A stretch of DNA of 13,536 nt from a virus (Duplodnaviria > Heunggongvirae > Uroviricota > Caudoviricetes). Position numbers and translations under genes: made by a program. The stretch covers positions 1 through 13,536 of IMG/VR virus record IMGVR_UViG_2671180571_000005; one strand, 5' to 3'. The stretch's first letter is position 1. Each line of letters opens with the position of its first letter. Positions 1 through 13,536 of the stretch are shown piece by piece. The notes under the pieces were generated by a model. The model searched no databases and was not told the origin of the DNA. It saw only the letters and a program-made list of their open reading frames with translations.

Positions 1-127
1 GATATTGTGTTTTTGTTTATTATCCGTCATTATGTTCTGTTAGTTTGTGACTAAGTTAACGCGTTATTAGTTATCTTATTCTCAAATTGTGTTACGATAA
101 TCCGAGCGGACAATCAGGAGAGGAAAG

Positions 128-2011
128 ATGAGCAAAGTAAAAATCGGTGAATTAATAAACTCACTTGTTAGCGATGTTGAGTCAATAGATAACTCTGACC
201 GTCCTCAAGGGGAAAAAACAAAAAAAATAAAAGCTGTTGCATTAAAATTTAAAAATGCATTATTTAATGACAAGCGAAAGTTTAGGGGGAAAGGATTAGA
301 AAAAAGAATTACAGCCAACACATTCAATGCCTATATGAGCAGGGCCAGAAAACGGTTTGATGATAAACTTCATCATAGCTTTGAAAAAAATATACATCGC
401 CTATCTGAAAAGTATCCTTTATATAATGAGGAGCTATTATCATGGCTTTCTCTACCTGCTGCCGATATTCGCCAGAGAATGTCAGCTTTACAGGCAAAAT
501 TAAAATTAATTCTCCCTTTATCAGAAGATTTATCTAATATCAGAATTGGTGATAACAAAAGTCATAATAAGTTATTAAAATTATCAAATAAATATAAAGA
601 GTGGCAATTCGCCATTTCTGATTTAACTAGCGATAACTGGAAAGATAAGCGCGATTATTTATATAAATTACTACAGCAAGGATCTGCCTTACTTGAGGAG
701 TTGAATCAGCTAAAAGTTAACCATGAGATTCTCTATCATCTTCAACTAAGCCCTGCCGAACGCGCATCTATCCAGCAACGATGGGCAGACGTTCTGCACA
801 ATAAGAAACGTAACGTGGTGGTCATTGATTACCCTAAATATATGCAAGCTATTTACGATATTATAAATAGCCCTGCTACATTAAATAATCTAAACACTCG
901 TTCAGGTATGGCTCCTTTGGCATTTGCACTTGCTGCATTGTCAGGAAGACGAATGATTGAGATTATGTATCAAGGTACATTTACTGTTTCTGGTAAGTAT
1001 ACCGTTGATTTTTTAGGCCAAGCAAAAAAAAGAACTTCTGATGATATAACCAGAAAAATATATACATTATGCGAAGCAAAAACATTTGTTTATTTAATAA
1101 ATGTACTTCGCTCATGCCCAGCAGCATCTGATTTTGATGATGTTGTTAAAGGTTATGGAGATAACGACACACGCTCTGAAAACGGACGGATTAATGCCAT
1201 ATTAGCAAAGGCTTTTAACCCGTGGGTTAAATCATTTTTCAAAGATGACCGCCGTGTTTATAAAGATAGTCGTGCTATTTATGCCCGTATTGCGTATGAA
1301 ATGTTTTTCCGCGTAGATCCTCGTTGGAAAAACGTAGATGAGGATGTTTTCTTTATGGAAATTTTAGGCCATGACGATGAAAACACTCAATTACACTATA
1401 AGCAATTCAAGCTGGCCAACTTCTCAAAGACATGGAGGCCAAATACTGGAAACGAAAATACCAGGCTGGAAGCATTGCAGCAGCTTGATGACGAAATGCC
1501 AGGATTCGCCAGAGGAGATGCCGGAGTTCGTCTGCATAACACAGTTAAGCAGCTGGTAGAGCAGGACCCCTCTATAAAAATCACGAACAGCACTCTAAGA
1601 GCATTCAAATTTAGCCCTACAATGATTAGTCGATACCTGGAATTTGCTGCTGATGCTCTGGGGCAATTTGTTGGCGAAAATGGACAATGGCAGCTGAAAA
1701 TAGATTCTCCAGAAATCGTTATGCCTGACGAAGAAGAGCTGGAAGCAATACCTGAACAGGCGGATGAATTATCAGAGGATGACGATCTGGATGACGACGA
1801 AATTGAGATAGAGGAAGAGAGCATAGAAGAACAGCAACCACCCGCGCCTTCTTCACCTGTATCTAAGCCGGTATTTAAGCCTGTGAGAAATATTGGTGAT
1901 GGCTCATACGTTGTTGAGTTTCATTATAATGGCCAGAATTATGCTTGGTCCGGCAGTGCAAACAGCCCTATGTCAGCAATGCAGTTAGCATGGCTGACAT
2001 ATTTCGGATAA
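128..2011 (+). CDS. telN: Protelomerase (telomere resolvase), TelN/TelK family
   Basis: 627-aa ORF with SD AGGAG (116-120) 7 nt upstream of the ATG. The translation (MSKVKIGELIN..., ...RAIYARIAYEMFF..., acidic C-terminal tail) is recognisably very similar to coliphage N15 TelN as I remember it. Recognised from memory, not searched. Confidence 0.85.
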   Translation: MSKVKIGELINSLVSDVESIDNSDRPQGEKTKKIKAVALKFKNALFNDKRKFRGKGLEKRITANTFNAYMSRARKRFDDKLHHSFEKNIHRLSEKYPLYNEELLSWLSLPAADIRQRMSALQAKLKLILPLSEDLSNIRIGDNKSHNKLLKLSNKYKEWQFAISDLTSDNWKDKRDYLYKLLQQGSALLEELNQLKVNHEILYHLQLSPAERASIQQRWADVLHNKKRNVVVIDYPKYMQAIYDIINSPATLNNLNTRSGMAPLAFALAALSGRRMIEIMYQGTFTVSGKYTVDFLGQAKKRTSDDITRKIYTLCEAKTFVYLINVLRSCPAASDFDDVVKGYGDNDTRSENGRINAILAKAFNPWVKSFFKDDRRVYKDSRAIYARIAYEMFFRVDPRWKNVDEDVFFMEILGHDDENTQLHYKQFKLANFSKTWRPNTGNENTRLEALQQLDDEMPGFARGDAGVRLHNTVKQLVEQDPSIKITNSTLRAFKFSPTMISRYLEFAADALGQFVGENGQWQLKIDSPEIVMPDEEELEAIPEQADELSEDDDLDDDEIEIEEESIEEQQPPAPSSPVSKPVFKPVRNIGDGSYVVEFHYNGQNYAWSGSANSPMSAMQLAWLTYFG

Positions 2012-2022
2012 ATCATACGGTA

Positions 2023-2055
2023 AAGGCACCGAATTATCGGTGCCTTGTTGTGTGG
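2023..2055. terminator. Stem-loop between convergent telN and Bro-N operon; possible bidirectional terminator
   Basis: Perfect 9-bp inverted repeat aaggcaccg (2023-2031) / cggtgcctt (2038-2046) with a 6-nt loop, 12 bp after the telN stop, followed on + by GTTGTGTGG. The U-tract is poor in both directions, so strength is uncertain. Confidence 0.45.
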
Positions 2056-2182
2056 CCTACCTCGCCTGCCCCCTGCAAAGGGTAGAAGTAACGGAGGAAA
2101 CGCGGCTGCAACCACAGACATCACCGCCCCGACTGCGAGGCTTCCCCTCACTAAGAAGGGCATAAATTCGGGCTGGCCAACC

Positions 2183-2956
2183 CTATTTATTAGTGATTTC
2201 TGCTGGCTTTAACTGCGCGGATAACTGCTCAAGTTTTTGAACTGCCAGTTCAAAATGCGCGGGTAACGCCTTTTCCAGATCAGAGTTAATATCGGTGATG
2301 GGCAAATCACCACACGACATACTCCGCCTACCCCCACGAACAACATCACGCAACAACTCTCGTTCATACGTGCGCATGTTCCCCAATGCCGACTCAGCAG
2401 CCGTCAAAATCCGGCGCAGTTCTGCCGTAATTGCTGGCAAATCATCAACAGTTATGGGGTTCGGGGATGGATTACGACACGCCCGACGCAAAGCTAACCA
2501 TACACCGCTAATCCAGGCATTTCGGTACTGAAAACTTTGTGCTATATCGTTAATCAGCCCTCGCAGATACTCTTTCTGCCTCCAGTTCAACGGCTCTGCT
2601 GCTCGCATTGGCTCAGGCTCGATGTAAACGTACTCTCCATTTTTGCGAATAGAGGGCAAGACTTCGTTCGTTACCCATTTGCGAAACCGCCAAGCTGTTG
2701 TGCCTTGCTTCACCGCGTCACGGCAGCGGAGAATGAGGGTGTAAAGACCTGATTCGCTGATGATATTGGCTTGACCTTGACGGCCTATGTTAAACATAGA
2801 TCGCTCATCTTCATCTAATCTAGCGATAGCTTGTGTGACATTCTGGATGCTTAAAGCATTGCAAATATCATTCGCCACAAACCACGGATCGCCGTTAATC
2901 ATCACTACACGTACCTGATGCTCTTCCTGAAAGGAAAAGACTGCTAACGCGCTCAT
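2183..2956 (-). CDS. Bro-N domain protein, putative antirepressor
   Basis: 257-aa ORF with strong SD AGGAGG 4-5 nt upstream. N-terminus FSFQEEHQVRVVMINGDPWFVANDICNALSI matches the Bro-N / phage antirepressor N-terminal signature (F.F....IRV....G.PWF.A.D....L). Start overlaps the stop of the upstream gene as ATGA. Last gene of an icd-like operon, the position occupied by ant in P1. Confidence 0.7.
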   Translation of the reverse strand: MSALAVFSFQEEHQVRVVMINGDPWFVANDICNALSIQNVTQAIARLDEDERSMFNIGRQGQANIISESGLYTLILRCRDAVKQGTTAWRFRKWVTNEVLPSIRKNGEYVYIEPEPMRAAEPLNWRQKEYLRGLINDIAQSFQYRNAWISGVWLALRRACRNPSPNPITVDDLPAITAELRRILTAAESALGNMRTYERELLRDVVRGGRRSMSCGDLPITDINSDLEKALPAHFELAVQKLEQLSAQLKPAEITNK

Positions 2957-3186
2957 TCAGCCTCCTTATCGCGCAGCAAGTGCGACGAGAGAGACGCAGA
3001 ATATCCCTGTGCTTCATGCGTTAACTCACACGCAATCTGCAGAAGTTTTCCAGCCTCTGAGAGGTAAATCGACGCCTCACAACTGGAGACTGTCCGATGG
3101 GCTGATGATACGAGCGCATAGACCTGAGCCAGACGTTCATCCAACGATTCCAGCAGGCCAACAGTGTTCATTTTTACCTGATTCAT
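2953..3186 (-). CDS. Hypothetical protein (77 aa), middle gene of the icd-like/antirepressor operon
   Basis: ORF with SD GAGGTG 5 nt upstream. ATGA overlap with the icd-like ORF upstream and with the Bro-N gene downstream (translational coupling on both sides). No recognisable motif. Confidence 0.55.
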   Translation of the reverse strand: MNQVKMNTVGLLESLDERLAQVYALVSSAHRTVSSCEASIYLSEAGKLLQIACELTHEAQGYSASLSSHLLRDKEAE

Positions 3187-3347
3187 GCAGCCACCTCGCG
3201 CACCGGAATACGGGCAGATAATACCAGGACAAACCGGCTGGCGAACTGGCGACGAGCTTCCCGTTCAGATGACGCGATAGTGGAAAGATGATGAATGTGG
3301 GACTTTTTGTCTGTGCGAACGACTGCCGCAAATTTGAATTTGAACAT
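3183..3347 (-). CDS. icd: Icd-like host cell division inhibitor (54 aa)
   Basis: Not in the supplied ORF track (below size cutoff). My translation: MFKFKFAAVVRTDKKSHIHHLSTIASSEREARRQFASRFVLVLSARIPVREVAA. The pattern F.F.AV.R.D....EREARR...F.L..AR.PV.EV is what I remember for Icd-like proteins of P1-type immI regions. SD GGAG 8 nt upstream; its stop overlaps the next start (ATGA). The 128-aa track ORF 3137..3523 in another frame is probably spurious. Confidence 0.55.
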   Translation of the reverse strand: MFKFKFAAVVRTDKKSHIHHLSTIASSEREARRQFASRFVLVLSARIPVREVAA

Positions 3348-3402
3348 GGTATGCACTCCGTTTTATTGGTCGTGCTACCACCAGAGTTGCGAATCTCTTT
3401 AT

Positions 3403-3482
3403 TGGTGGTAGCCCAGGCGGGGTTCGCAATACCGGTAAACGAAGAAACCGGCCCGACCGAAGTCAGCCCCACCTGAGCCACC
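3403..3482 (-). ncRNA. Candidate C4/CI/cA-type antisense immunity RNA (tRNA-like, 3' ...ACCACCA)
   Basis: On the minus strand the 5' end GGUGGCUCAGG (3482-3472) pairs with the 3' end CCUGGGCUACC (two G-U pairs), giving an acceptor-like stem ending ACCACCA. Internal UUCG-tetraloop hairpin CUGAC-UUCG-GUCGG and CCGGU-N10-ACCGG stem. Two segments (AUUGCGAA at 3430-3423, GCUACCACCA at 3412-3403) are complementary to repeated targets upstream (3552-3565) and downstream (3374-3395) on the same strand. Ends are approximate; folded by eye. Confidence 0.4.
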
Positions 3483-3513
3483 ATAATTCGGATATGCGCA
3501 GGTCTATACACAC

Positions 3514-3536
3514 AAAAAAACACGCTGGCGCGTGTT
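3514..3536 (-). terminator. Rho-independent terminator-like hairpin in the leader of the icd-like operon
   Basis: Minus strand reads AACACGC-GCCA-GCGUGUU followed by a run of U (plus-strand A-run 3514-3520). Sits between the upstream target repeat and the candidate RNA; could be the regulated attenuator or the terminator of the lipoprotein transcript. Confidence 0.4.
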
Positions 3537-3727
3537 GTGCGCTTCGTTTTGCCAGGATTGCGAAGTCCCGACTGCGGGATTTACCGCAGCGAGGTGACTT
3601 TACCTCCAAAACGACGCACACGTCAATAATTTGCAAAGACATTTTACCCCGTGACCAGTCACGGGGACAGGTGTTTTTATAGTTTGCTTGAACAAACGAT
3701 CAGAACATGAACAATGTTATTGTTCCG

Positions 3728-4540
3728 TTATAAGAAAGCCTCACGCGAACGGAACACCCACTCTAGCTGTACTGGATAAATTTCTCCCGTTTTAATATTT
3801 ATTATGCGCGCGGCTAATAACTCACCCATAAAAACCTGAGTTTTATGGCTCATATCTGACGGGTTAAAAATAGTAGGTGATGTTATATCAATATGATTGC
3901 TGCTTAACCCATTTATCTTTGCTAAATATTCAATTCTAAGGTCTTTTACATTAACATCTTTTGGCATTTGTCCTTTTATATCAATATCTGCCCATATTGT
4001 TTCAGGGTTCCCTTCATTTATTTGTGTACTACCAAAGATAATTTCGGCACCTAAAGTATTTAACACTTCTACATCAGCAGATATTCCAAAAGCATTAGCA
4101 CCAACATAGCTTCCATGCTTTGTTATTTCAGAGGAATCGACATGAAAACCATACCATCCAGACATATCTCGAGATGTTATCACGCTATCACTACCGCTAT
4201 TCTCAGCAAAATCACGGTTAAGATATGTTCCTGAGTATGTGATACTTCTAGGGATAGACAAACCTTGAGATGTTAAAACGTTGTTGTATGGCGCGTATGT
4301 TAATGAGTGAACGACATATCCACGCCATGAACCATCATCTATCTTTGATGCAATAATTCTATTAAATTCCTTACCTGTGAGTATTTTGCTGCTAAAATCA
4401 CCAACAGAGTTGATAGGTACTCTTTTTTCTTTTTCGAATTTATACTCAACGTCCGTTGATGCCTTATTATCATATTGATAAGTGCATCCAGATAATAACA
4501 AGATAGAGAGTAATAAAGCTGTTGTTTTTTTGTTACGCAT
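3728..4540 (-). CDS. Lipoprotein of unknown function (AT-rich moron)
   Basis: 270-aa ORF. N-terminus MRNKKTTALLLSILLLSGC has a basic n-region, hydrophobic core and lipobox L-S-G-C (signal peptidase II type). Local GC about 32-35 percent against about 48-50 percent in repA (hand count of 60-bp samples). AT-rich upstream region 4541-4629. Confidence 0.7.
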   Translation of the reverse strand: MRNKKTTALLLSILLLSGCTYQYDNKASTDVEYKFEKEKRVPINSVGDFSSKILTGKEFNRIIASKIDDGSWRGYVVHSLTYAPYNNVLTSQGLSIPRSITYSGTYLNRDFAENSGSDSVITSRDMSGWYGFHVDSSEITKHGSYVGANAFGISADVEVLNTLGAEIIFGSTQINEGNPETIWADIDIKGQMPKDVNVKDLRIEYLAKINGLSSNHIDITSPTIFNPSDMSHKTQVFMGELLAARIINIKTGEIYPVQLEWVFRSREAFL

Positions 4541-4629
4541 AATATTAACTTAACCTATTTGATTAATAATATGTTATTCCATTAAATAAAATATGCCGAG
4601 AACGGTTTAACTTGAACAGTCATCACTAT

Positions 4630-5037
4630 TCAATCAACTTTTTTAGCATCAGCCATACGCTTCAACCAGTAATCAACAATCGGTTGCTCATCCACAGAAT
4701 GTTTACCAGGTATAACTCGCCAGCTATCTTGCGAAAATCTGCCGTACTTACGCGGGAATAGGCCTTTCTTTATCTCCCGCCATGTACTAGGAAAACCATC
4801 CACAAAAGTACCAATTAACAGGAGAGGGACAAAAATCAGAGCTACAAACCATCGTGCAAGAAAGTGTTCAACAACAACATTTTCACCGTTGTAGTAATAC
4901 GCATACGCATCCAATATGCGAATTTTCCTTACCTTAAAAATAGCCTTATGCTGAGAACGACTTAACTTGATACGAATGTATCCCTTATCCAAAGGGGATT
5001 CGTATTCGTATGATTGAACAGCCATTTTTAACCCCAC
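4630..5037 (-). CDS. Hypothetical membrane protein (135 aa)
   Basis: ORF with one strongly hydrophobic segment (WFVALIFVPLLLIGTFV). Start overlaps the end of the upstream 108-aa gene by 10 bp. No recognisable catalytic motif. Confidence 0.5.
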   Translation of the reverse strand: MGLKMAVQSYEYESPLDKGYIRIKLSRSQHKAIFKVRKIRILDAYAYYYNGENVVVEHFLARWFVALIFVPLLLIGTFVDGFPSTWREIKKGLFPRKYGRFSQDSWRVIPGKHSVDEQPIVDYWLKRMADAKKVD

Positions 5038-5354
5038 TCACCATCAGCAAACAAAGCGTTATACTCTGACAATGGTAGACGGTTGCCCTCGATGTAGAGA
5101 TTCAGTTCATACTTCGTCTCCGGGTTTTCCTTGTCGGCTCGTTCCCAACGCTCAGCAGCCTTACGCGCCAATAATTCCACTGCTTTCAGATAATCCTCCG
5201 TACGGAACCAGCCAAAGATAAGGCCACGATCTGTTACAGCCCAGGCGACCTTTTTTTCTTCCTCCTGGATAGCCCTAATGCGTCGTTCGCATTCATCCCG
5301 GCAGAACTGCAGCTGACGGTAATCAAGTTTGTCCAAAAATGCAGTAGTAGACAT
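5028..5354 (-). CDS. Hypothetical protein (108 aa)
   Basis: ORF with SD GGGGAG about 7 nt upstream of the ATG; tightly packed between the small membrane ORF and the 135-aa gene. Function unknown. Confidence 0.5.
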   Translation of the reverse strand: MSTTAFLDKLDYRQLQFCRDECERRIRAIQEEEKKVAWAVTDRGLIFGWFRTEDYLKAVELLARKAAERWERADKENPETKYELNLYIEGNRLPLSEYNALFADGEWG

Positions 5355-5358
5355 ATTT

Positions 5359-5550
5359 TTACTCCCCGTTCACCGAAAATTCACGATAGAAACGTTTCCA
5401 CATACGATAAGTCTGCGCAAATTGTTCACCACGAAACATCGCCTTCCTGGCCTTCATGTTTTCCTTGTGAGACTTTCGGTCTATGAACCAAAACCATTGC
5501 TGGAACACACAAAGCAAGAGACACAAAGATAATATCCACTCATTACCCAT
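5359..5550 (-). CDS. Small hypothetical membrane protein (63 aa)
   Basis: I place the start at the internal ATG (5550) just upstream of the repA stop rather than the track's 102-aa extension, which overlaps repA by about 125 bp. Product MGNEWILSLCLLLCVFQQWFWFIDRK... has one hydrophobic helix. Weak SD. Fills the gap between repA and the 108-aa gene exactly. Confidence 0.35.
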   Translation of the reverse strand: MGNEWILSLCLLLCVFQQWFWFIDRKSHKENMKARKAMFRGEQFAQTYRMWKRFYREFSVNGE

Positions 5551-8500
5551 AGAAAGCGCCCTGCTCTTCGTAGCTGCATGAGCTATTCCCCGTAATGTAT
5601 TCACGTAACCGCCGCAGCTCATTGCTGGAAAGGTGATCCATGAACTCTGTGAGGTACAGGGATGCAAACGTCATAGCTATGCTGGCTGATGACCATGATG
5701 ACATAGTGGCCAACTCCTCACTGGAAAGCGCACTCATCGCCCAGGACTCAGGTACAGCCACTGGCAACACGGCCAAAGCCTCAGAAATTACTGAATGAGG
5801 GGCGTTTTGAACCTGCTCGTTTGTGGATCGCGTTTTATCATCCATATATATATTGAGATCCAAATCGCGATCCATTTCGATGGCTGTCTTCTCGGCTTTA
5901 CGCGTTTTTAGGGTTAGGCCATCTTTCTGACGCTGAACAAGAATATCCAGCATAAATGCCGCTGATTCAGGCTCAACAAAACGCAAGGTTGGACGCTTAT
6001 CGCCGTCTCTGCCGCGACGTTTACCTGTTTTAAGGCCAAGAGAGTCGCAAATGTTTTTAAACAACGCTTCCGGCACTTTAGGCTTCCCTTTTGGCGTCAT
6101 AAAACCACCAATGTGCAGAACGTTATTCAACAGGTCACGGCGTTCGGCTGTCATGAGGTTATCTCGAGCGAATTTGAGACGCTCCTGAGTCGCCTCGCCG
6201 GTCATAGTCTCAGGGTTGATACCGCAGTCGATAAAGTACTGCCGGAGAGTTGCTGATTTAAGCGCATAGAAACCGCGCGCCCCGACTTCAACAGTAGGAG
6301 TAGCTTTTACCTTGTGATCGATTATTCCAGGGAATTTAGTTTTAAAGACATCATCAGCCTGCTCGCGAGTCATCGCGGTCACTACAAAATATTGCCACTG
6401 TCCCGCCTGACGGTATGCGTAGGTAAAATTGATGGCTGCTTCTTCCCGGTCGTAACGACGAGCTGTTACCTCATCTAAAAGCATTGTTTCATAGCGGCGA
6501 ACTTTGTCTCGAGCACCATCGAAATAGAATTTCAGCGTGCCTTCTTCAACCGGTAGTTTCAGTTCGTTCTCAATATCCCAGCGGACAAGTTTTGCTTGTT
6601 CTTCAAGCGTCAGCGCGCGTTTTTTTAGCAGTTCTTCACGCTCTGATTCTTGTGGAGTTTCTGTATTGAGATGCAGATCCAGTGTCTGTTCCCACACAAT
6701 ATCCCGCGCTTCTTTACGCAGATCTTTACCGATATCATTCGCAGCATAATCGGTGGCCAGCGGCGATACCTTATAACCGTCGCTGTGCATGATGCAGATC
6801 ATGTTGCTGGCGTAGTCGTTACGCGCAGACGCTTCAATTGCGGCTGCTTTAATTTTCATCCTGGTAAAGTCGGTATTGGCCACCCCCATTGATATACGGT
6901 CGCCATCGAAAACGACATCCGTCAGTTCACCGTTCATGCCTGCGGTAGCAAGCAATGCCTGGGCGAATGCTCGTTCTATTTTTTGCGGGTCAGTTTCACG
7001 TTTTGCGCGAGCTTTATCAAAGCCGATAATAAATTCTTTTGCTGTACGGTCGCGGCGTAGCATTTGCACTGCGTCGCTGGGTACAACTTCACCACAGAAC
7101 ATGCCGAAATGACGGTCAAAATGTTTTTGCTCAATCGACACACCGGATGAAATAGACGGGCTATAAATCAGGCCGTCGTATTTTTTGACCATCTTTTTCG
7201 GTTGATTGGTAAATGCTTCAACTTCTGGCTCTGGTTTGTTTTTCTGGTTTACACACAGAAATTTCTTACCAGGAAAATGCATTCTCAGGGTGGCGGTCAC
7301 ATCTTCTGCAAAGGTGGAGCTGTCGGTGGCCAACATGATTTTTTCGCCATTCGATACAGCTTTCACCACCTCGGTCATAATGCGATCTTTTTCTGTATAA
7401 AAAACCCGGATTGGCTCACCTGTTTCGCGGTTGCGAACATCAACAGGTAATTCAATTACGTGGATCTGCAGCCATGCCGGTAAACCTAGTTCTTCACGGC
7501 GTTTCATAGCCAGTTCAGCCAGGTCAACCAGCAGATCGTTCGCATCAGCATCCACCATTATTGGGTGTTGTTCCGTTCTGGCCAGCGCGTCAATTAACGT
7601 ATTGAATACAGCCACCGGGTTTTCCATAGCCCGACCGGAAAGAACGGCACGTAGCCCTTGCGTGGCCTCGTCAAAGCCAAAATAGTCGTGCTGGCGCATC
7701 AATGGTTGCCAGCAGTTTTTAACAATCGAGTTTATGCAGATGGTCAGTTTACTGGCGTATGGAGCCATTTCCTGATAGCCAGGGTCCTGATAGTGCAGGA
7801 TATCGGCTTTTACACCTTTTCCTTCTGTCATCATTTCCCACAGGCCACCAATAAGGGAAACACGGTGAGCAACAGAGATACCACGTTCTGAGCTATGCAT
7901 TAAAGGTCGTAACAATCCAGTAGATTTGCCGGAACCCATACCAGCACGAACGATGACTATCCCCTGTAGTGATTGCACATACTTCAGGACGTCATCGGTC
8001 ATTACCGAAGTTTCAAAACGCTTATAGGTGATATGTTGAGGACGTTTATTGGGATCAGTTATTCGTTCGCTGAATGAGCGCGGAGCCTGGGCAATACGGC
8101 ACTTTTTATTCAGGCGACGGGCAATGTGGTCTTTTACCGTAGCGCGATAGATATTTTCCAGCCCAATTTCACGCAGGACGATGCAGAACATGTTAAATAA
8201 GTCTGACGGACTGTTAGGAACCGGACAGGTTAGCATGCCAATATCCACTGCTCTCAGCAGCTCTTTGGCAAAAGTACGACGGTTATCCCGCTTAATTGTC
8301 TTCAGGCGGTTGAGCGTCAGAGATAGCAAATCAGTGCCAGTTTTCAGGCGGTTTGCAGTTGCAAACAGTTGACGTGCTGTTTCACGAAGTCCACGTAGTT
8401 TGTGCAGGTCGTTGAAGTCACTGCACTCCATTTGCGGATCGTCTTCAAAAGTTGGATAGACGCAGCGGACATCGTTGAATTTCGATAAGATTTCATAGCC

Positions 8501-9538
8501 AGTCCGCAGGCCGGTATTCCCTTTTCCTTCTGTAGCTGATTTCCGGTCATTATCCAGTGCGCAGGTGATTTTTGCCGCCGGGTACATGTTTACCAGTTGT
8601 TCCACAACATGAACCATGTTGTTAGCGGATACAGCGACAACCACAGCGTCAAAGCGTTTATCTTTTTTCGTGGCAAGCCAGATGGATGCACCAGTAGCAA
8701 AACCTTCTGTAACAGCGATGTTTTGCGCCCCTTTCAGCTCACCGATAACAAAGCAGGCACCGACGAAATCGCCGCTGGTTACGGCACTGGTCTGGTATTT
8801 TCCACCTTGTTTGTCGATTCGCTGCCAACCAACAATACGACCATCGTAACGACCGTCCAGGTGAGCCAGAGGGATAGCCATATACGTGGTTGGCCCCCTG
8901 CTCCATTTTGCGCTGTCGTGACTGGTCACGCGACGCACATCACACGAATTAAAAACGTCACGAATACCTTTTTTAATCGCATATGGCCATGAGCCGTCTT
9001 CTGCAGGAGCATGTTCCCAAGCACTGTGGAATGCCAGCCATCCCAGCAAACGTTCATGGTCCATTTGGTTGTTTTTCAGGTCATTAATTCGTTTTTGTTC
9101 TTCACGGCGACGACGTGCTTCGGCCTGACGTTCTATTCTTGCCCGTTCTTCTTCCGGTTGTGCGACCACGGTCGCATTATTCCGTTGTTGCTCACGGCGA
9201 TATTCAGAAAACAGGAAGGAGAAACCGCTCCATGAGCCAGCATCGCTGCCTTTATGGACGAAGTTAATGAACGGGTAATCAATCCCTTTGCTGTGTTCCA
9301 GCCGGGAGTAAATTTCTACGCGTCCTTTGAGGCTCTTTTCGAGAGCTTCTGGGGATGTTTTATTGTATGAAGAGTAACGCTCAACACCCCCGCGAGGGTT
9401 GAGTTGGATGTTGTCGGAACAGGCAGACCAGTTGATACCAGCCATCTGTGCCAGCTCGGTTAGTTCATCCCGTGCTGCTTCAATTAGCGAGAACGGATCG
9501 CTGCCAAAGCGATCCGCATAGAAATCGTTTAATGTCAT
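5543..9538 (-). CDS. repA: Replication protein RepA (multidomain primase-helicase, N15 RepA / P4 alpha type)
   Basis: 1331-aa ORF. Primase-like EG(F/Y)ATG motif (VTEGFATGASIW) in the N-terminal half; Walker A GMGSGKST and Walker B-like FGFDEATQ in the central helicase region. Size and position (between telN/immA and cB) match N15 repA (about 1324 aa, as I recall). Confidence 0.85.
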   Translation of the reverse strand: MTLNDFYADRFGSDPFSLIEAARDELTELAQMAGINWSACSDNIQLNPRGGVERYSSYNKTSPEALEKSLKGRVEIYSRLEHSKGIDYPFINFVHKGSDAGSWSGFSFLFSEYRREQQRNNATVVAQPEEERARIERQAEARRRREEQKRINDLKNNQMDHERLLGWLAFHSAWEHAPAEDGSWPYAIKKGIRDVFNSCDVRRVTSHDSAKWSRGPTTYMAIPLAHLDGRYDGRIVGWQRIDKQGGKYQTSAVTSGDFVGACFVIGELKGAQNIAVTEGFATGASIWLATKKDKRFDAVVVAVSANNMVHVVEQLVNMYPAAKITCALDNDRKSATEGKGNTGLRTGYEILSKFNDVRCVYPTFEDDPQMECSDFNDLHKLRGLRETARQLFATANRLKTGTDLLSLTLNRLKTIKRDNRRTFAKELLRAVDIGMLTCPVPNSPSDLFNMFCIVLREIGLENIYRATVKDHIARRLNKKCRIAQAPRSFSERITDPNKRPQHITYKRFETSVMTDDVLKYVQSLQGIVIVRAGMGSGKSTGLLRPLMHSSERGISVAHRVSLIGGLWEMMTEGKGVKADILHYQDPGYQEMAPYASKLTICINSIVKNCWQPLMRQHDYFGFDEATQGLRAVLSGRAMENPVAVFNTLIDALARTEQHPIMVDADANDLLVDLAELAMKRREELGLPAWLQIHVIELPVDVRNRETGEPIRVFYTEKDRIMTEVVKAVSNGEKIMLATDSSTFAEDVTATLRMHFPGKKFLCVNQKNKPEPEVEAFTNQPKKMVKKYDGLIYSPSISSGVSIEQKHFDRHFGMFCGEVVPSDAVQMLRRDRTAKEFIIGFDKARAKRETDPQKIERAFAQALLATAGMNGELTDVVFDGDRISMGVANTDFTRMKIKAAAIEASARNDYASNMICIMHSDGYKVSPLATDYAANDIGKDLRKEARDIVWEQTLDLHLNTETPQESEREELLKKRALTLEEQAKLVRWDIENELKLPVEEGTLKFYFDGARDKVRRYETMLLDEVTARRYDREEAAINFTYAYRQAGQWQYFVVTAMTREQADDVFKTKFPGIIDHKVKATPTVEVGARGFYALKSATLRQYFIDCGINPETMTGEATQERLKFARDNLMTAERRDLLNNVLHIGGFMTPKGKPKVPEALFKNICDSLGLKTGKRRGRDGDKRPTLRFVEPESAAFMLDILVQRQKDGLTLKTRKAEKTAIEMDRDLDLNIYMDDKTRSTNEQVQNAPHSVISEALAVLPVAVPESWAMSALSSEELATMSSWSSASIAMTFASLYLTEFMDHLSSNELRRLREYITGNSSCSYEEQGAFYG
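5800..5910. other. Candidate intragenic replication origin near the 3' end of repA
   Basis: Three copies of GCGTTTT (5802, 5830, 5902), alternating AT run CATATATATATT (about 5843-5854) and three GATC sites within 47 bp (5826, 5857, 5869), about 300 bp from the repA stop. N15 ori is reported to lie inside the 3' part of repA (from memory). Confidence 0.3.
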
Positions 9539-9589
9539 TTTTTAGCCATTCCATGCGAATTATGTTTTTTCGGGTTGAAAAAATCCGCA

Positions 9590-9652
9590 GGAGCAGCCAC
9601 AATAAACGCATCTTGAATTGACGGAATCCGTCGCGTTATTGTGGCTGCTTCC
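9590..9652. repeat. Long imperfect inverted repeat in the repA upstream region
   Basis: Arm 1 ggagcagccacaataaacgc (9590-9609) and arm 2 gcgttattgtggctgcttcc (9633-9652); perfect 13-bp core gcagccacaataa / ttattgtggctgc; 23-bp spacer. Confidence 0.6.
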
Positions 9653-9660
9653 TGAAAAGG

Positions 9661-9689
9661 ACCCGAGTTTGCCGACTCGGGTTTTTTTT
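9661..9689 (+). terminator. Rho-independent terminator, strongest on + strand (opposite to repA and cB)
   Basis: acccgagt (9661-9668) / actcgggt (9675-9682), 6-nt loop, followed by T8 on the + strand. On the minus strand the tail is only CCUUUUUC, so it may also weakly terminate the cB transcript. Confidence 0.6.
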
Positions 9690-9783
9690 CGTCTTTTTTC
9701 TGCTGCTGTAACCTGAGTCAACCCACAGAACATATGCCCTGCATTAAACCAGATTTACAGCAAACAATAAACCCCGTATTAAG

Positions 9784-10380
9784 TCATCTACCCTCAACCA
9801 TGAATGATTTGATCGTTCCGACTATTTGGTGAACAAATTCAAGATCGCTTTTCCTGAAGATAGCGCGTTGTGAATTTGTTCCGTCCAGATAGTAATTTTC
9901 ATCATCAAAACGGGCCAGGCGCTGGATGGTGATATTTCCTGCAGTATCACGAACCAGAACATCCTCGCCGGGGACCAGTTCCAGCGCAGAATCGACCAGG
10001 AGAAAATCGCCAGGCTGATAGTTTCCCTGCGCCAGATTGCTGATAGTTAACGCATAAACAGTATTGCGCTGGCTGATGAATGGCAGGAATCGCTCAGTAT
10101 TTGGAACCTGTCCTGGCTTCCACTCTTCATCAGGTCCACTTTCAGTTGTGCCAATAACAGGAATGCGATCAGGGTCATATTCTGTCCCATACAGCACCCA
10201 ATGCACTGGCTTGCGTAAGCATTTAGCCAGGGCAATACCTATCTCCAGTGACGGCATTACGTCGCCACGTTCTAAGTTTTGGACGCCTGCAATAGAGATA
10301 TCGACAGCCTCAGCAACTTCTCGCAACGTCAGCTTCATCTCTAAACGGCGTGCTTTCAGTCGTTCGCCTCGTGTTTTCAT
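9784..10380 (-). CDS. cB: Prophage repressor, lambda CI-like (N15 CB-type): N-terminal HTH plus S24 peptidase-like C-terminal domain
   Basis: 198-aa ORF. N-terminal HTH (LTLREVAEAVDISIAGVQNLERG); C-terminal region PGDFLLVD...GEDVLVRD...ITIQRL resembles the LexA/CI S24 fold. Divergent from cro with operator-like palindromes between them. Confidence 0.8.
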   Translation of the reverse strand: MKTRGERLKARRLEMKLTLREVAEAVDISIAGVQNLERGDVMPSLEIGIALAKCLRKPVHWVLYGTEYDPDRIPVIGTTESGPDEEWKPGQVPNTERFLPFISQRNTVYALTISNLAQGNYQPGDFLLVDSALELVPGEDVLVRDTAGNITIQRLARFDDENYYLDGTNSQRAIFRKSDLEFVHQIVGTIKSFMVEGR

Positions 10381-10402
10381 AGCTTAATCATAAATGATCT
10401 TC

Positions 10403-10444
10403 TTATAGCTGGCTATAAAATTTATTTATTATAGCTGGCTTTAA
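10403..10444. promoter_or_regulatory. Two operator-like palindromes in the cB-cro divergent promoter region
   Basis: TTATAGC-TG-GCTATAA (10403-10418) and TTATAGC-TG-GCTTTAA (10429-10444), 26 bp centre to centre, in an AT-rich intergenic region containing TATAAT-like hexamers for both divergent genes. Confidence 0.5.
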
Positions 10445-10471
10445 TTGTTGTTTATTGTTTATAATAACAAC

Positions 10472-10693
10472 ATGAAACCAGAAGAACTTATTCGCCATTT
10501 TGGCAGTGTAGAAAAAGCAGCGGCAGGGGTAGGTGTAACACCCGGAGCTGTTTACCAATGGTTAACCGCTGGAGAGATTCCTTCATTGCGGCAAAGCGAT
10601 ATTGAAGTTCGTACTGCTTATAAGCTGAAGAGTGACTTTACAACTCGGCGGGTAAAGCAGTCGATTAAGGAGAGTCGTAAGCGTGGAGCTTGA
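10472..10693 (+). CDS. cro: Cro-like repressor (73 aa)
   Basis: Small HTH protein (GVGVTPGAVYQWLTAGEIP) divergent from the repressor gene. I use the ATG at 10472; the track's start at 10445 is a TTG inside the operator region. A TATAAT at 10460-10465 ends 7 bp before the ATG, so the mRNA may be leaderless. Confidence 0.65.
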   Translation: MKPEELIRHFGSVEKAAAGVGVTPGAVYQWLTAGEIPSLRQSDIEVRTAYKLKSDFTTRRVKQSIKESRKRGA

Positions 10694-11393
10694 GTATATA
10701 CGCAGCTGCGTCTCTACGGCATTGGCTGATGTTCATTATCGCCAGCGTGGCATTCTGGAGGTCCAGCTTGAGCAGATGCGTCTCGGTAGATCAGGACGGT
10801 TTAACAATAAACCAGTCCGGTCAATCAGTGTAGGGGATGATAACTCATACGAAGTGTCCGTTCCTGCTGAGCCGGTTAGATTCCACCAGGGGAAAACATT
10901 TAAACAATCATCAATGTTGCTCACTGATATTGATTTTCAGAGCGCCAGCTGGCGCAGGGCTATTGGTCAGTTGAATAACGAGGAATCAGCCTGGCTTTAT
11001 TATTGCTACGGATGCAAGCCTGATTACAACAATGATGTGATTGTTTGTCAGTGGTTATGGCTTGATTTTCTGGTTGCTCATTCGGGGGCCGGCTTTAAAA
11101 AAATGAAGGCCTCCACGAAAAAAGCCATGCGGAAATTGATTTATTACGCGGCACAGCAGGTTAAATCAGAACTTACGTGTGCTGAGGCAGTTGATGAGAG
11201 AGAACAGGACAGGCATCTGAGTTTTCTACTGAATATATCTATTGATAGCTGGAGACAAGATTATAAAGAACGCTGGCTTTTAATTAAGTCGCGATGTCTG
11301 AGCTTAAATCGAACTGCATTATTAAATGCGGCGGAGAAGCGCAGTGAAATCATCAAACGCCATCGGGCAGGAAGTGCCATTCTGCCTTTGTAA
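10683..11393 (+). CDS. Putative late-gene antiterminator Q-like protein (positional call)
   Basis: 236-aa ORF with GTG start and SD AAGGAG about 10 nt upstream, overlapping the cro stop. Sits where N15 has Q (cB-cro-Q) and is of similar size. I see no unambiguous Q zinc-finger motif, so the functional call is by synteny only. Confidence 0.4.
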   Translation: MELEYIRSCVSTALADVHYRQRGILEVQLEQMRLGRSGRFNNKPVRSISVGDDNSYEVSVPAEPVRFHQGKTFKQSSMLLTDIDFQSASWRRAIGQLNNEESAWLYYCYGCKPDYNNDVIVCQWLWLDFLVAHSGAGFKKMKASTKKAMRKLIYYAAQQVKSELTCAEAVDEREQDRHLSFLLNISIDSWRQDYKERWLLIKSRCLSLNRTALLNAAEKRSEIIKRHRAGSAILPL

Positions 11394-11646
11394 ACAAGTT
11401 ATGTTCAGGAAACCGTCGAAGCCAGAATTAAGATATTCAGGGGTAAGAAATGAATATGTTATCTGGTGTCCAACTTGTGGTTACAGGACACGACCAGATA
11501 GTAATAAGCAGTCTGTAATTGCCGATTGGTATTTATCAAATCAGCCAGGTAATAAGCATATAGAAAATCTTTGGATTAAGCGTTACTTGGAAATCAGAGA
11601 GGGTGCGACCGTGGTCGCACAAGAAAATGAAAATAACGCCATTTAA
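11326..11646 (+). CDS. Hypothetical small protein with CxC / CxxC cysteine pairs; start uncertain
   Basis: Track ORF of 106 aa overlapping the Q-like gene end. Alternative starts: GTG 11344 (SD GGAG 7 nt upstream) or ATG 11401 (no SD). Contains FCLC and CPTCG, a possible small zinc-binding motif. Confidence 0.4.
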   Translation: MRRRSAVKSSNAIGQEVPFCLCKQVMFRKPSKPELRYSGVRNEYVIWCPTCGYRTRPDSNKQSVIADWYLSNQPGNKHIENLWIKRYLEIREGATVVAQENENNAI

Positions 11647-11656
11647 GCAGGGGCCG

Positions 11657-11830
11657 ATGACGCATGATGAAGCAGAGCGTCTTTCAGATACTTATCGGCG
11701 GCGTGGTAAGAAAGTTCTGGTTGTTCGTTCTGATTTTTTAGGTGATGGATATTGCGTTTATGTTCATTTACCTGAATTAGAAAGAACGCCAAAACCATCC
11801 AGAACATATCAACAGAAAATTTGGGTATAG
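11657..11830 (+). CDS. Hypothetical small protein (57 aa)
   Basis: I use the ATG at 11657 (AGGGG 4 nt upstream, 10 nt after the previous stop) rather than the overlapping track start at 11603. No recognisable motif. Confidence 0.35.
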   Translation: MTHDEAERLSDTYRRRGKKVLVVRSDFLGDGYCVYVHLPELERTPKPSRTYQQKIWV

Positions 11831-11853
11831 ATAAACGTTGAGGAGAATTATTC

Positions 11854-12453
11854 GTGACTAATCAGATTATTTACGACAGGAAACGGTCTGATGTAATGAT
11901 TGACCTTGAAACAATGGGTACTAACACATGTGCTCCAATTGTTTCTATCGGGGCAGTGTTTTTTTCTCCAGAAAGTGAGGAATTAGGTCCTACTTTTTAT
12001 GTGCCAGTGAATCTCAGAAGCTCGATGTTGAATGGTGGTGTCGCCGATGGTGATACCATTTTATGGTGGTTGAAACAGAGCAAGGAAGCCAGAGCCGCAA
12101 TTTGTACTAATGATGCCCTTGATATTAAGGATGCACTTTTTGAATTATCACACTTTATTACTTGCCATGCATGTAATTTAAAAAAATTGAAAGTATGGGG
12201 AAATGGAGCAACTTTCGATAATGTAATTTTACGCGGTGCTTATGAGCGCGTTGGCTTAGTCTGTCCGTGGGAATGTTTTAATGATCAGGATGTTCGAACA
12301 ATCGTTAATCTTGGTCAGTTTATTGGTTTTAATCCTAAAAAAGATATGCCATTTGATGGCGAACGACACAATGCCCTGGCTGATGCTATTCATCAGGCTA
12401 AATATGTATCCGCAATTTTCTCCCGTCTTGTAAAAGGGCAAGGAGAATCGTAA
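11854..12453 (+). CDS. DEDDh-family 3'-5' exonuclease (DnaQ/RNase T-like fold)
   Basis: GTG start with SD AGGAG 8 nt upstream. Exo I motif MIDLETMG (D-x-E), Exo II motif GNGATFDNVIL, Exo III motif HNALADAIH (H-x4-D). Confidence 0.7.
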   Translation: MTNQIIYDRKRSDVMIDLETMGTNTCAPIVSIGAVFFSPESEELGPTFYVPVNLRSSMLNGGVADGDTILWWLKQSKEARAAICTNDALDIKDALFELSHFITCHACNLKKLKVWGNGATFDNVILRGAYERVGLVCPWECFNDQDVRTIVNLGQFIGFNPKKDMPFDGERHNALADAIHQAKYVSAIFSRLVKGQGES

Positions 12454-12872
12454 TGGCAAAGGCTTTTACACCAGAACAGAGAGAAGAACTGAATAAACAA
12501 ATTGTGGAACTCGTGCGCCTGAATGGACGAGGAACGGTTAGGCAACTTGCGGATGAAACTGGTATTAGCCGGTGTGCTGTTAGTCGTTTATCAAGAGAGC
12601 TTGCTGCCAGTGGTGATTTGTATATCTCTGGCTCCGGGATATTTCTGTCTGCACAAGCGCGCAAGGACTGGCAAAACGCCCGCAAAAAGCTATCAAGAGT
12701 AAAGCCGAAGAAATCGGTAGTGGTTGATCCAGACCTTATCTGGTCATTACCTGACGGAGAAATACGTCGTTACGACAGGCGCTTGAACATGATTTGTCAC
12801 GATTGCCGGAAGAGCGAAGTTATGCAGCGTGTGCTGGCGTTTTATCAGGGAAATTTTCAGGAGGTGGCGTAG
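12453..12872 (+). CDS. HTH DNA-binding protein (139 aa)
   Basis: ATG overlaps the exonuclease stop (TAATG); SD AAGGAG upstream. N-terminal helix-turn-helix-like segment TVRQLADETGISRCAVSRLSRELAASG; basic central region. Confidence 0.6.
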   Translation: MAKAFTPEQREELNKQIVELVRLNGRGTVRQLADETGISRCAVSRLSRELAASGDLYISGSGIFLSAQARKDWQNARKKLSRVKPKKSVVVDPDLIWSLPDGEIRRYDRRLNMICHDCRKSEVMQRVLAFYQGNFQEVA

Positions 12873-13162
12873 TGAATATCGACACGACAATAACGCTCGA
12901 TACGCTCCTAAATTCCGGCCTGGCACTTCTCGGTTGGCTTTACATCATGTCCCGTACATGGCGATGGCTGGGTTCCATTTTCCTGAAACAGTGGAAAAAA
13001 CGGCGCAAACAGGAACTACGCCAGAAGGCATTAGAAGCGTTCTATGACGCATTTGAACTTAGCAGCATTGAATCTGGCACAACAGCCAGGATAGCGACAA
13101 AAGGCGACCTGATGATAGTGATGTTCCGACAGGAGAGAGCAGAGAAAGGGGAATCAGCATGA
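12872..13162 (+). CDS. Small membrane protein (96 aa from GTG)
   Basis: Track ORF 12794..13162. I place the start at GTG 12872, which overlaps the upstream TAG (TAGTG) and has SD AGGAGG 7 nt upstream. One hydrophobic helix LLNSGLALLGWLYIM followed by a basic stretch KQWKKRRKQ. Confidence 0.45.
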   Translation: MNIDTTITLDTLLNSGLALLGWLYIMSRTWRWLGSIFLKQWKKRRKQELRQKALEAFYDAFELSSIESGTTARIATKGDLMIVMFRQERAEKGESA

Positions 13163-13536
13163 AATTTTACAAATTTTCTGAGTTGGTGAATCGCATTTTG
13201 TCCAACAACCACAGCCATCGTCGCGATATGGATGTAACAATCGTTGTTCATTCGCCTGGCAGCATTGGTTCAACACCTTCAGTTGAGGTTCAGTCAATTC
13301 ACGCTGGTTTTGATTGGGATTCCGGGAAAGTGCTTATTTTCCCATCACAGCCACTGACCACGCTAACACCAGAACAGATTACTGATATCACTGATAGTGT
13401 GCGCAAAGGTCAGTCTTGGCACGCATATCAGGAATATAAAAATCATAAAGAGCAGTTGGAAAAATTGTCGATTGAGTTGGAATCAGCCAAAAATCACATA
13501 GCAGAACTGGAAGCCAAACCTGTAAGCCAAACTTAC
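13159..13536 (+). CDS. Hypothetical protein, 3'-truncated by the window end
   Basis: ATG at 13159 overlaps the previous stop (ATGA); open to the last base of the window (126 codons, no stop). Not in the track because incomplete. The last part looks coiled-coil-like (EQLEKLSIELESAKNHIAELEAK). Confidence 0.5.
   Translation, partial: MKFYKFSELVNRILSNNHSHRRDMDVTIVVHSPGSIGSTPSVEVQSIHAGFDWDSGKVLIFPSQPLTTLTPEQITDITDSVRKGQSWHAYQEYKNHKEQLEKLSIELESAKNHIAELEAKPVSQTY

Follow-up and report, generated by a model that had tools for sequence, protein, structure and literature searches.

Does the DNA between the protelomerase and replication genes of an N15-like phage encode a short inhibitor of host cell division, and if so, what controls its expression? 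The question arises from a 13,536 nt stretch of DNA (hereafter the window, meaning this entire stretch) from a virus assigned to the Caudoviricetes (IMG/VR record IMGVR_UViG_2671180571_000005, positions 1 to 13,536). A first-pass annotation of its sequence proposed that a 54-codon frame absent from the accompanying ORF track is an icd-like gene, and that the 128-aa ORF listed for the same region in another frame is not the gene. Our analysis indicates that the 54-codon ORF is very probably icd, which in the immA operon of an N15-like linear plasmid-prophage is the first cistron to encode a protein, and that it would operate within the RNA-controlled mechanism proposed below.

The genes that surround the locus place it in a familiar setting. 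The window carries a protelomerase gene (telN) at 128..2011, a gene at 5543..9538 for a RepA-like replication protein of 1331 aa with Toprim and origin-binding-protein matches, a cB-like HTH repressor gene at 9784..10380 (its S24-like match is sub-threshold) and an antiterminator Q gene at 10683..11393. Judged by this gene content, the window is an N15-like telomere phage, that is, a linear plasmid-prophage. The icd region matches both N15 and N15-like linear plasmids of E. coli, and the trio formed by icd, a 77-aa gene and a Bro-N gene is annotated in both. The locus lies between telN and repA, the same position that it occupies in N15, and is the secondary immunity region, immA, of the window phage. 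In N15 and phiKO2, the immA operon consists of icd, antA and antB (PMC4488713, PMC10612081). The features of the locus are collected in Table 1.

Table 1. Genes, RNAs and predicted RNA pairing sites at the icd locus, in window coordinates
Feature	Position	Strand	Sequence, basis or remarks
Candidate sigma-70-like promoter Pa	3597..3626	(-)	TTGACG, 18-nt spacer, TAAAGT; putative function
isrK/seqA-like leader RNA	3515..3590	(-)	Rfam RF01394; terminator scan; fold; complementarity to C4
Predicted site a1	3564..3558	(-)	UUCGCAA; 8-nt loop of the second hairpin of the leader
Predicted site b1	3549..3542	(-)	AAACGAAG; single-stranded in the leader, after a1
Predicted intrinsic terminator	stem 3536..3519, then U-run	(-)	Terminator scan; ends the leader
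C4-type antisense RNA (CA RNA of N15, CI RNA of P4)	3401..3488	(-)	Rfam RF01695
Predicted specificity segment b'	3447..3436	(-)	UUUCUUCGUUUA; hairpin loop of C4
Predicted specificity segment a'	3430..3423	(-)	AUUGCGAA; internal single strand of C4
Predicted site a2	3387..3393	(-)	UUCGCAA; Loop (8 nt) of a small hairpin immediately 3' of C4; complementary to a'
Predicted site b2	3356..3364	(-)	AAAACGGAG; complementary to the b' loop; contains the icd Shine-Dalgarno sequence GGAG
icd	3183..3347	(-)	54-aa Icd-like protein, first cistron; NF033153 match, codon tests, conserved start and overlap
77-aa gene, antA-like	2953..3186	(-)	Homologue of N15 gene 31; start overlaps icd stop
257-aa Bro-N gene, antB-like	2183..2956	(-)	Homologue of N15 gene 30; ATGA overlap with the end of the 77-aa gene
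128-aa ORF ('ash family' frame)	3137..3523	(-)	Not a gene; read-through of C4 RNA, spacer and the +1 phase of icd

The icd frame extends from an ATG at 3347..3345 to a TGA at 3185..3183 and encodes the 54-aa product MFKFKFAAVVRTDKKSHIHHLSTIASSEREARRQFASRFVLVLSARIPVREVAA. As proposed from the first reading, the frame is preceded by a Shine-Dalgarno sequence (GGAG at 3359..3356, 8 nt 5' of the ATG), and its stop codon shares an ATGA (3186..3183) with the start codon of the 77-aa gene. The 77-aa gene is coupled to the Bro-N gene in the same manner, by an ATGA at 2956..2953. In a mechanical list of ORFs, the icd frame appears as a 57-aa ORF with a GTG start (3183..3356). The default threshold for such a list is 60 aa, and the earlier ORF track may lack icd because this 57-aa version falls under it. 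We rejected the GTG at 3356 as the start codon: it lies inside the Shine-Dalgarno sequence and is not conserved elsewhere, the family model begins later, and the RefSeq protein is 54 aa long. The gene had been called unannotated, which is accurate for the ORF track but not for RefSeq, where a protein 100% identical to the icd product is already named 'host cell division inhibitor Icd-like protein' (WP_001386895.1, from an E. coli linear plasmid). The neighbours of this RefSeq entry are a 'hypothetical protein' and a 'BRO-N domain-containing protein' on one side and an 'ash family protein' pseudogene on the other.

Evidence that the short frame is translated into a conserved protein comes from a set of 47 related loci in IMG/VR, from which 35 distinct 720-nt segments were aligned. 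The icd frame is open in 35 of 35 loci, where it encodes 54-57 aa and always begins with ATG, and its overlap with the start of the next gene is likewise kept in all 35 (34 ATGA, 1 GTGA). The ATGA that joins the 77-aa gene to the Bro-N gene is also conserved. Minor-allele frequencies at the first, second and third codon positions are 0.061, 0.060 and 0.261, respectively, and the corresponding numbers of variable columns are 22, 19 and 53 of 54. The median pairwise dN/dS is 0.077 at a mean dS of 0.97 (478 pairs), and the sole indel found within icd among the 35 loci is 9 nt long. When the window gene is compared with that of N15, 28 nt differences are observed, of which 23 are in third positions and 3 change an amino acid; the two proteins are 94% identical, whereas the DNA is only ~79-83% identical. 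These results establish that the 54-codon ORF is a real protein-coding gene under purifying selection, beyond what chance would produce.

The assignment of the product to the Icd-like family, made at first from the sequence alone, is confirmed by a profile search. The protein matches the NCBIfam model NF033153 (phage_ICD_like) with 67 bits against a cut-off of 25, and residues 2-49 correspond to model positions 1-48, the full model. Identities to homologues range from 100% for two deposited Escherichia phages through 85-91% for Klebsiella telomere phages to 59% for PY54, where the gene is annotated as icd, and 50% for P4. Among 24 homologues reaching down to 59% identity, 19 residues are invariant. 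A Pfam search with the 54-aa protein returned LtuB only, at 18 bits (cut-off 25), which we took to be a chance match.

Residues 12-51 of P1 Icd align to positions 1-47 of the same NCBIfam model, which is also matched by the ORFs of P4 and N15. The P1 protein is longer, with 73 aa and both N- and C-terminal extensions, and shows ~35% identity to the window Icd in a multiple alignment. The tie to P1 Icd rests on the shared profile, since a pairwise BLASTP comparison of the two proteins found no alignment. P1 Icd binds FtsZ, and its residues 12-51 constitute the minimal region for FtsZ interaction and filamentation (PMC11897509). Through model positions 1-48, a segment equivalent to this minimal core can be recognized in the window Icd. 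Furthermore, N15 Icd has been described in the telomere-phage literature as a cell division inhibitor (PMC4488713, PMC10612081). By homology with P1 Icd and with N15 Icd as so described, the window Icd would also be expected to inhibit division.

It could be argued that the window protein is a member of the Icd-like family with some activity other than that of P1 Icd, for example as a subunit or helper of an antirepressor or as a regulator. The similarity to P1 Icd is detectable by profile only, and members of the family go under the names 'transcriptional repressor' or 'immunity repressor' in PHROGs and in a number of GenBank entries. Such labels, however, date from a time when the cA/cI/c4 immunity determinant was believed to be a protein specified by this ORF, and this determinant is an RNA. 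Structure prediction might also seem to favor a different activity: the AlphaFold model of Icd, a beta-hairpin followed by a helix and a strand (pLDDT 73, moderate confidence), is without an informative structural neighbour, as a Foldseek search against the PDB gave no match with E < 0.8. Set against this, the region common to the window protein and P1 Icd is exactly the active core of the latter (PMC11897509), and the telomere-phage papers noted above assign division inhibition to N15 Icd. We consider a different activity improbable.

Even less probable is that the 54-codon ORF serves only as a coupling (leader) ORF whose peptide is functionless, an arrangement that would resemble orf45 of Gifsy-1. 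In this view, ribosomes translating the ORF would give access to the antirepressor genes and keep polarity from setting in. Retention of the start/stop overlap in 35 of 35 loci would be expected of such an element, and the P1 record remarks that icd is 'apparently required for expression of ant'. A functionless peptide, however, would not account for the strong constraint documented above (dN/dS of 0.077, 19 invariant residues in 24 homologues), for retention of the Icd family in P1, P4, PY54 and N15, or for the binding of FtsZ by the P1 protein (PMC11897509). In PY54, icd stands alone, away from antA, which argues that icd is more than a coupling device. A coupling role is very likely true in addition to the function of the Icd protein, not instead of it.

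The remaining competitor is the 128-aa ORF, whose phase is +1 relative to icd. As the first-pass annotation had pointed out, this ORF overlaps both the small RNA (C4, 3401..3488) and the 77-aa gene (its first 50 nt); it also covers all of icd. Several database entries appear to support the long frame. Residues 6-61 match positions 48-97 of the Pfam model PF10554 (Phage_ASH) with 48.2 bits (cut-off 26). In E. coli plasmids, the corresponding site is annotated by PGAP as an 'ash family protein' pseudogene, and old records of P4 and N15 label long ORFs here 'cI/ash' and 'gene 32', respectively. However, the Phage_ASH-matching residues are encoded by 3508..3341, and a full-length match to C4 RNA lies within this segment on the same strand. 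The stems of this RNA are those of a structured molecule: in 27 sequences that include P4 and P1, both partners have changed in a compensatory way at 12 of the 28 C4 pairs, and pairing is almost never disrupted.

Patterns of variation among the 35 loci also argue against the long frame. The Ash stretch shows no codon periodicity (0.159, 0.175 and 0.127 at the three positions, with no third-position excess) and carries frame-breaking indels of 1-2 nt. Where the 128-aa frame crosses icd, variation is maximal at its second position and dN/dS is ~3.8. A test for stop-free frames over the C4 region gave no discrimination in this short, GC-rich stretch, and the ORFs that begin with a conserved AUG in the C4 5' arm (window 3484) were analysed instead. 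These range from 15 to 115 codons and occur in all three phases relative to icd, and 20 of the 35 end before icd is reached. The Ash-like stretch is in frame with icd in N15-type loci alone, yielding the 100-aa 'gene 32' of N15, whereas in the window it is out of frame. Conservation therefore follows the 54-aa frame and not the 128-aa frame (35 loci; periodicity, dN/dS and ORF phase). Neither of the two outcomes that the first-pass annotation had named as refuting its proposal was observed. That the 128-aa 'Ash family protein' is the real gene and the 54-aa frame incidental is scarcely credible, and the 128-aa ORF is refuted as a conserved protein. The Phage_ASH family and the corresponding PGAP 'ash family protein', or at least the part matched here, are likely an artefact that arises when the C4/CI RNA gene is translated. 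At this locus, a conserved structured RNA yields a recognizable pseudo-family on translation, which explains why both ORF callers and Pfam go astray.

With icd identified as the gene, the sequences upstream of it can be read as a control region. The C4-type RNA matches RF01695 over its full length with 82.3 bits (cut-off 45) and ends 54 nt before the icd ATG. Farther upstream, the leader RNA matches positions 1-77 of RF01394 with 52.8 bits, a marginal result given the gathering score of 50, and its fold has a z-score of -3.5. The promoter candidate, which would place the transcript start at ~3590, directly precedes the first position of the isrK match; it is the single promoter-like site in 2000..3800, a number no higher than that obtained with shuffled sequences (mean of 1.6). 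In operons of the P1 immI and N15 immA type, this promoter is repressed by the primary prophage repressor, C1 in P1 and CB in N15. The proposal that icd heads a three-gene operon thus stands in part. The gene is the first cistron and is followed by two ATGA couplings, but the transcription unit begins ~240 nt upstream, with the leader and the C4-type RNA.

Sequences of C4 that could act on this region are readily recognized. In the window, the predicted pairing of a' with a2 comprises 7 nt, and the predicted duplex between b' and b2 consists of 8 pairs that include GGAG, with an energy of -8.4 kcal/mol. There is also a predicted fold in cis, wherein GUGGUAGCAC (3381..3372) pairs with GUGC.UACCAU (3356..3346), burying the A and U of the start codon.

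The two genes downstream of icd have the characteristics of antirepressor genes. The 77-aa protein matches PHROG 6301 (1.5e-36) and PHROG 10889, 'anti-repressor' (1.3e-18), and is 63% identical to N15 gp31. Its similarity to PY54 AntA (87 aa) amounts to 35% identity over 48 aa (E = 5e-9). The frame shows codon periodicity among the 35 loci (0.166, 0.100 and 0.367). This gene is most likely antA, encoding a small antirepressor, although the name rests on the annotation of PY54. The 257-aa protein carries a Pfam Bro-N domain (74.7 bits), matches PHROG anti-repressor families and is 73% identical to N15 gp30 (E = 1e-151); by these similarities its gene is most likely antB.

We propose that these elements act together in the following manner. 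Transcription would proceed leftward from the promoter near 3600 through the isrK/seqA-like leader, which ends in the intrinsic terminator. Transcripts that continue would include the C4-type RNA gene, from which C4 is probably excised, as in P1, P4 and N15, and then icd, the small antA-like gene and the Bro-N antB-like gene. The a' and b' segments of the mature C4 could pair with a1 and b1 before the terminator and thereby favor premature termination (the mode of P4 and N15), and could also pair with a2 and b2 just before icd and block its translation (the mode of P1). Because b2 includes the icd Shine-Dalgarno sequence, pairing with b' would prevent icd translation; and because the three cistrons are joined by ATGA, the loss of icd translation would also silence the antirepressor genes, both because translational coupling is lost and probably because Rho-dependent polarity sets in. 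On failure of control by C4, Icd and the antirepressor would be made together. AntA/AntB would then inactivate the prophage repressor, while Icd would most likely bind FtsZ and block division, giving rise to filaments. RNA processing, termination control, polarity, FtsZ binding, filamentation and antirepression are steps that we infer for the window phage from the homologous systems of P1, P4, N15 and Gifsy-1. For N15, what is said here of the activity of Icd, of how CA RNA is processed and of how termination works draws partly on general background and partly on secondary sources.

If C4 recognizes its targets by base pairing, the pairing partners might be expected to change in concert between phages. 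The C4 specificity segments of the 35 distinct loci comprise 6 a-types and 11 b-types, which occur in 18 combinations. In 35 of 35 loci, a' can form 7-8 nt of pairing with the a1 and a2 of its own locus, compared with means of 3.9-4.0 nt for pairing with other a-types. The mean energy of the C4-to-leader duplex is -25.9 kcal/mol for a locus with its own leader and -17.7 kcal/mol for loci differing in both types. The b' loop and b2 also change together between loci; for example, a UGUCCAUUGGGA loop is accompanied by UCCCAAUGGA at the Shine-Dalgarno sequence, and in N15 the loop UUUCUUCUUGUA is accompanied by UACAAGA in the icd leader. Specificity is much less clean for b'/b2 than for a'/a2, since many b-types are only 1-2 nt apart, and 46% of cross-type b'/b2 pairs attain the length of the weakest own pair; the comparison for b is statistically weak. 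Among telomere phages, these comparisons suggest, a'/a1/a2 form one covarying module and b'/b1/b2 another, clearly for a and more weakly for b.

The presence of 18 a/b combinations, each with its own matching sites, suggests that recombination reassorts the sites into new heteroimmune modules. The isrK-like terminated leader RNA could in addition be an activator in trans that opposes C4, with the icd start held in the conserved predicted hairpin. A more ambitious, and for now tentative, view is that N15-like phages might possess an RNA 'immunity code' that is combinatorial and based on two sites, with icd translation governed by a pair of opposing RNAs derived from one leader; we think that this is possible, but on balance rather doubtful. 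The modular covariation of C4, the possible activating role of the IsrK-like leader and the likely artefactual nature of Ash are of some curatorial or follow-up value, but their kind is not surprising.

Among known systems, N15 is the closest to the window phage. Ravin et al. in 1999 reportedly described the immA operon of N15 as composed of cA RNA, icd, antA and antB. In later papers, that 1999 study is cited for the N15 anti-immunity operon (PMC10432266) and the operon is summarized (PMC4488713). The two phages share the genome type and the order of elements, in which an isrK-like leader ending in a terminator is followed by the C4-type RNA, icd, the small gene and the Bro-N gene, and the N15 leader matches the isrK model with 62.4 bits. 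They differ in the a-type, which is UUGAGAA in N15 and UUGCGAA in the window, and in the b' loop, which is UUUCUUCUUGUA in N15 and UUUCUUCGUUUA in the window. Since the C4 segments and their targets differ in this way, the window phage and N15 should be heteroimmune at immA. Another difference, described above, is the AUG embedded in C4, which is in frame with icd in N15 but out of frame in the window.

The immI region of P1 and P7 (c4 RNA, icd, ant1/ant2) resembles the window locus in that a C4 antisense RNA lies upstream on the same transcript. In the P1 record, a1 and b1 are upstream and a2 and b2 downstream of c4, b2 coincides with the ribosome-binding site of icd, and the end of icd overlaps the beginning of ant. 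P1 Icd is a member of the same NCBIfam family as the window protein. In contrast, Ant1 and Ant2 of P1 are products of one nested gene, whereas the window encodes a small protein and a Bro-N protein. The P1 record also annotates no terminator in the leader upstream of c4, a difference that concerns annotation only.

The immunity region of P4 contains a seqA leader, CI RNA and seqC. The seqA (isrK-like) leader scores 60.8 bits and CI RNA, of the C4 family, scores 74.9 bits, and these are followed by an Icd-like ORF (NF033153, 73.9 bits) that is the first translated ORF of the PLE operon and whose product is the 50% identical homologue noted above. This ORF may correspond to the kil/eta genes of P4. 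In contrast to the window locus, the downstream genes of P4 are concerned with replication and derepression (epsilon, orf151, alpha) and are not antirepressor genes. Premature termination under RNA control has been described for P4 (PMC4825925, PMC3632133), and the occurrence of IsrK-like and C4-like RNAs has been described for P4, P1, P7 and N15 (PMC3632133).

A further parallel is provided by the isrK-orf45-anrP locus of the Salmonella prophage Gifsy-1 (PMC4825925). There, an isrK leader/sRNA with its terminator is followed by a processed RNA of ~80 nt (STnc1160), and a short ORF is linked by AUGA to the antirepressor gene (PMC4825925). The Gifsy-1 mRNA is translationally inactive, with its ribosome-binding site sequestered (PMC4825925), and the icd AUG of the window is likewise predicted to reside in a hairpin. 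Gifsy-1 differs in that it is without icd, and the coupling ORF is orf45. The start codon of orf45 would seem to be the conserved AUG of the C4 5' arm, since this ORF has two in-frame AUGs with a spacing of 12 nt, in agreement with the MVAQM pattern of N15. Moreover, trans-activation by the short leader RNA has been demonstrated in Gifsy-1 (PMC4825925), whereas the leader in the window is a candidate only.

What, then, does this locus contribute? Control of the icd-ant operon by a C4-type RNA has been understood for decades from work on P1, P4 and N15. The proposal that the 54-codon frame is icd is correct in observation and interpretation, yet the gene was already known: it is the icd of the N15 immA operon, annotated in RefSeq. 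A 2025 report identified FtsZ as the target of P1 Icd (PMC11897509). For annotation, the value of the analysis is that the short frame is confirmed as a gene and the long frame is not. For biology, nothing here is new in kind, and the gain is a modest one that consists of the comparative covariation of the two C4 modules and of an Icd reduced to its minimal core. The 54-aa Icd corresponds approximately to the 40-residue active core of P1 Icd alone, and it would therefore offer a natural minimal version of the protein for studies of FtsZ inhibition.

The C4/CI RNA gene and the spacer preceding icd, translated on the same strand, make up what PF10554 (Phage_ASH, the PGAP 'ash family protein') matches in the window, P4 and N15 alike. 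The frame of the matching stretch is variable, and the stretch carries no coding signature. Positions 44-107 of the PF10554 model, at least, look like an artefact of RNA translation.

ORFs of the form 'MVAQ.G...', ranging from 15 to 115 codons, start from the AUG in UUAUGGUGGCUCAG in the 35 related loci. In the Salmonella prophage Gifsy-1, the translated ORF orf45 has two in-frame AUGs spaced 12 nt apart, ~107 nt from the isrK start (PMC4825925). By comparison with MVAQM of N15, we infer that the orf45 start appears to be the conserved AUG of the C4 5′ arm, so that in some relatives the C4 region may be a place where ribosomes load.

The start codon of icd is predicted to be hidden by a hairpin. 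The C4 3′ arm (GCUACCACC) is likewise complementary to GGUGGUAGC; before processing, the transcript could thus fold in another way that leaves the start accessible.

Features of the immunity region and comparison loci
Feature	Position	Strand	Remark
PF10554-matching stretch	window 3341..3508	(-)	same strand as C4 RNA gene
PF10554-matching stretch, P4	L003 1312..1504
PF10554-matching stretch, N15	L002 2850..2975
AUG within UUAUGGUGGCUCAG, C4 5′ arm	window 3484	(-)	conserved in 35 related loci
Predicted hairpin over icd start	window 3346..3381	(-)	invariant GGUGGUAGCAC paired with GUGCAUACCAU
C4 specificity segments and four target sites	window 3423..3447, 3542..3564, 3356..3393	(-)	also in L005-L050 (related loci)
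icd, PY54	L052 3859..4023		labelled 'immunity repressor Icd'
270-aa ORF	window 3728..4540	(-)	lipoprotein-like signal (…LLLSGC) at N-terminal start
Two smaller ORFs	window 4630..5037 and 5028..5354	(-)	match PHROGs of unknown function

The icd gene of PY54 is solitary, adjoining the partition genes and distant from antA. Several other records, as well as PHROGs, name the Icd family 'transcriptional repressor'. Such repressor labels look like a historical mislabel, inherited from the era when the icd ORF was taken to encode the immunity factor, which is an RNA.

The stretch separating the immA operon from repA is AT-rich (36-40% GC). Its 270-aa ORF falls into no Pfam family and matches a PHROG only weakly. 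The corresponding position in Klebsiella telomere phages is occupied by telocin/immunity cassettes (PMC12042878). GC content is only 34-38% over the first three-quarters of the protelomerase gene (window 1..1500, +), counting from the 5′ end; the 3′ end of the gene and the adjoining immA operon have 46-52%.

Across 35 distinct loci, the pair of specificity segments in C4 and the four sites that they target fall into six a-types and 11 b-types, which occur in 18 combinations. This distribution suggests that the two recognition modules reassort independently, giving rise to mosaic heteroimmunity types.
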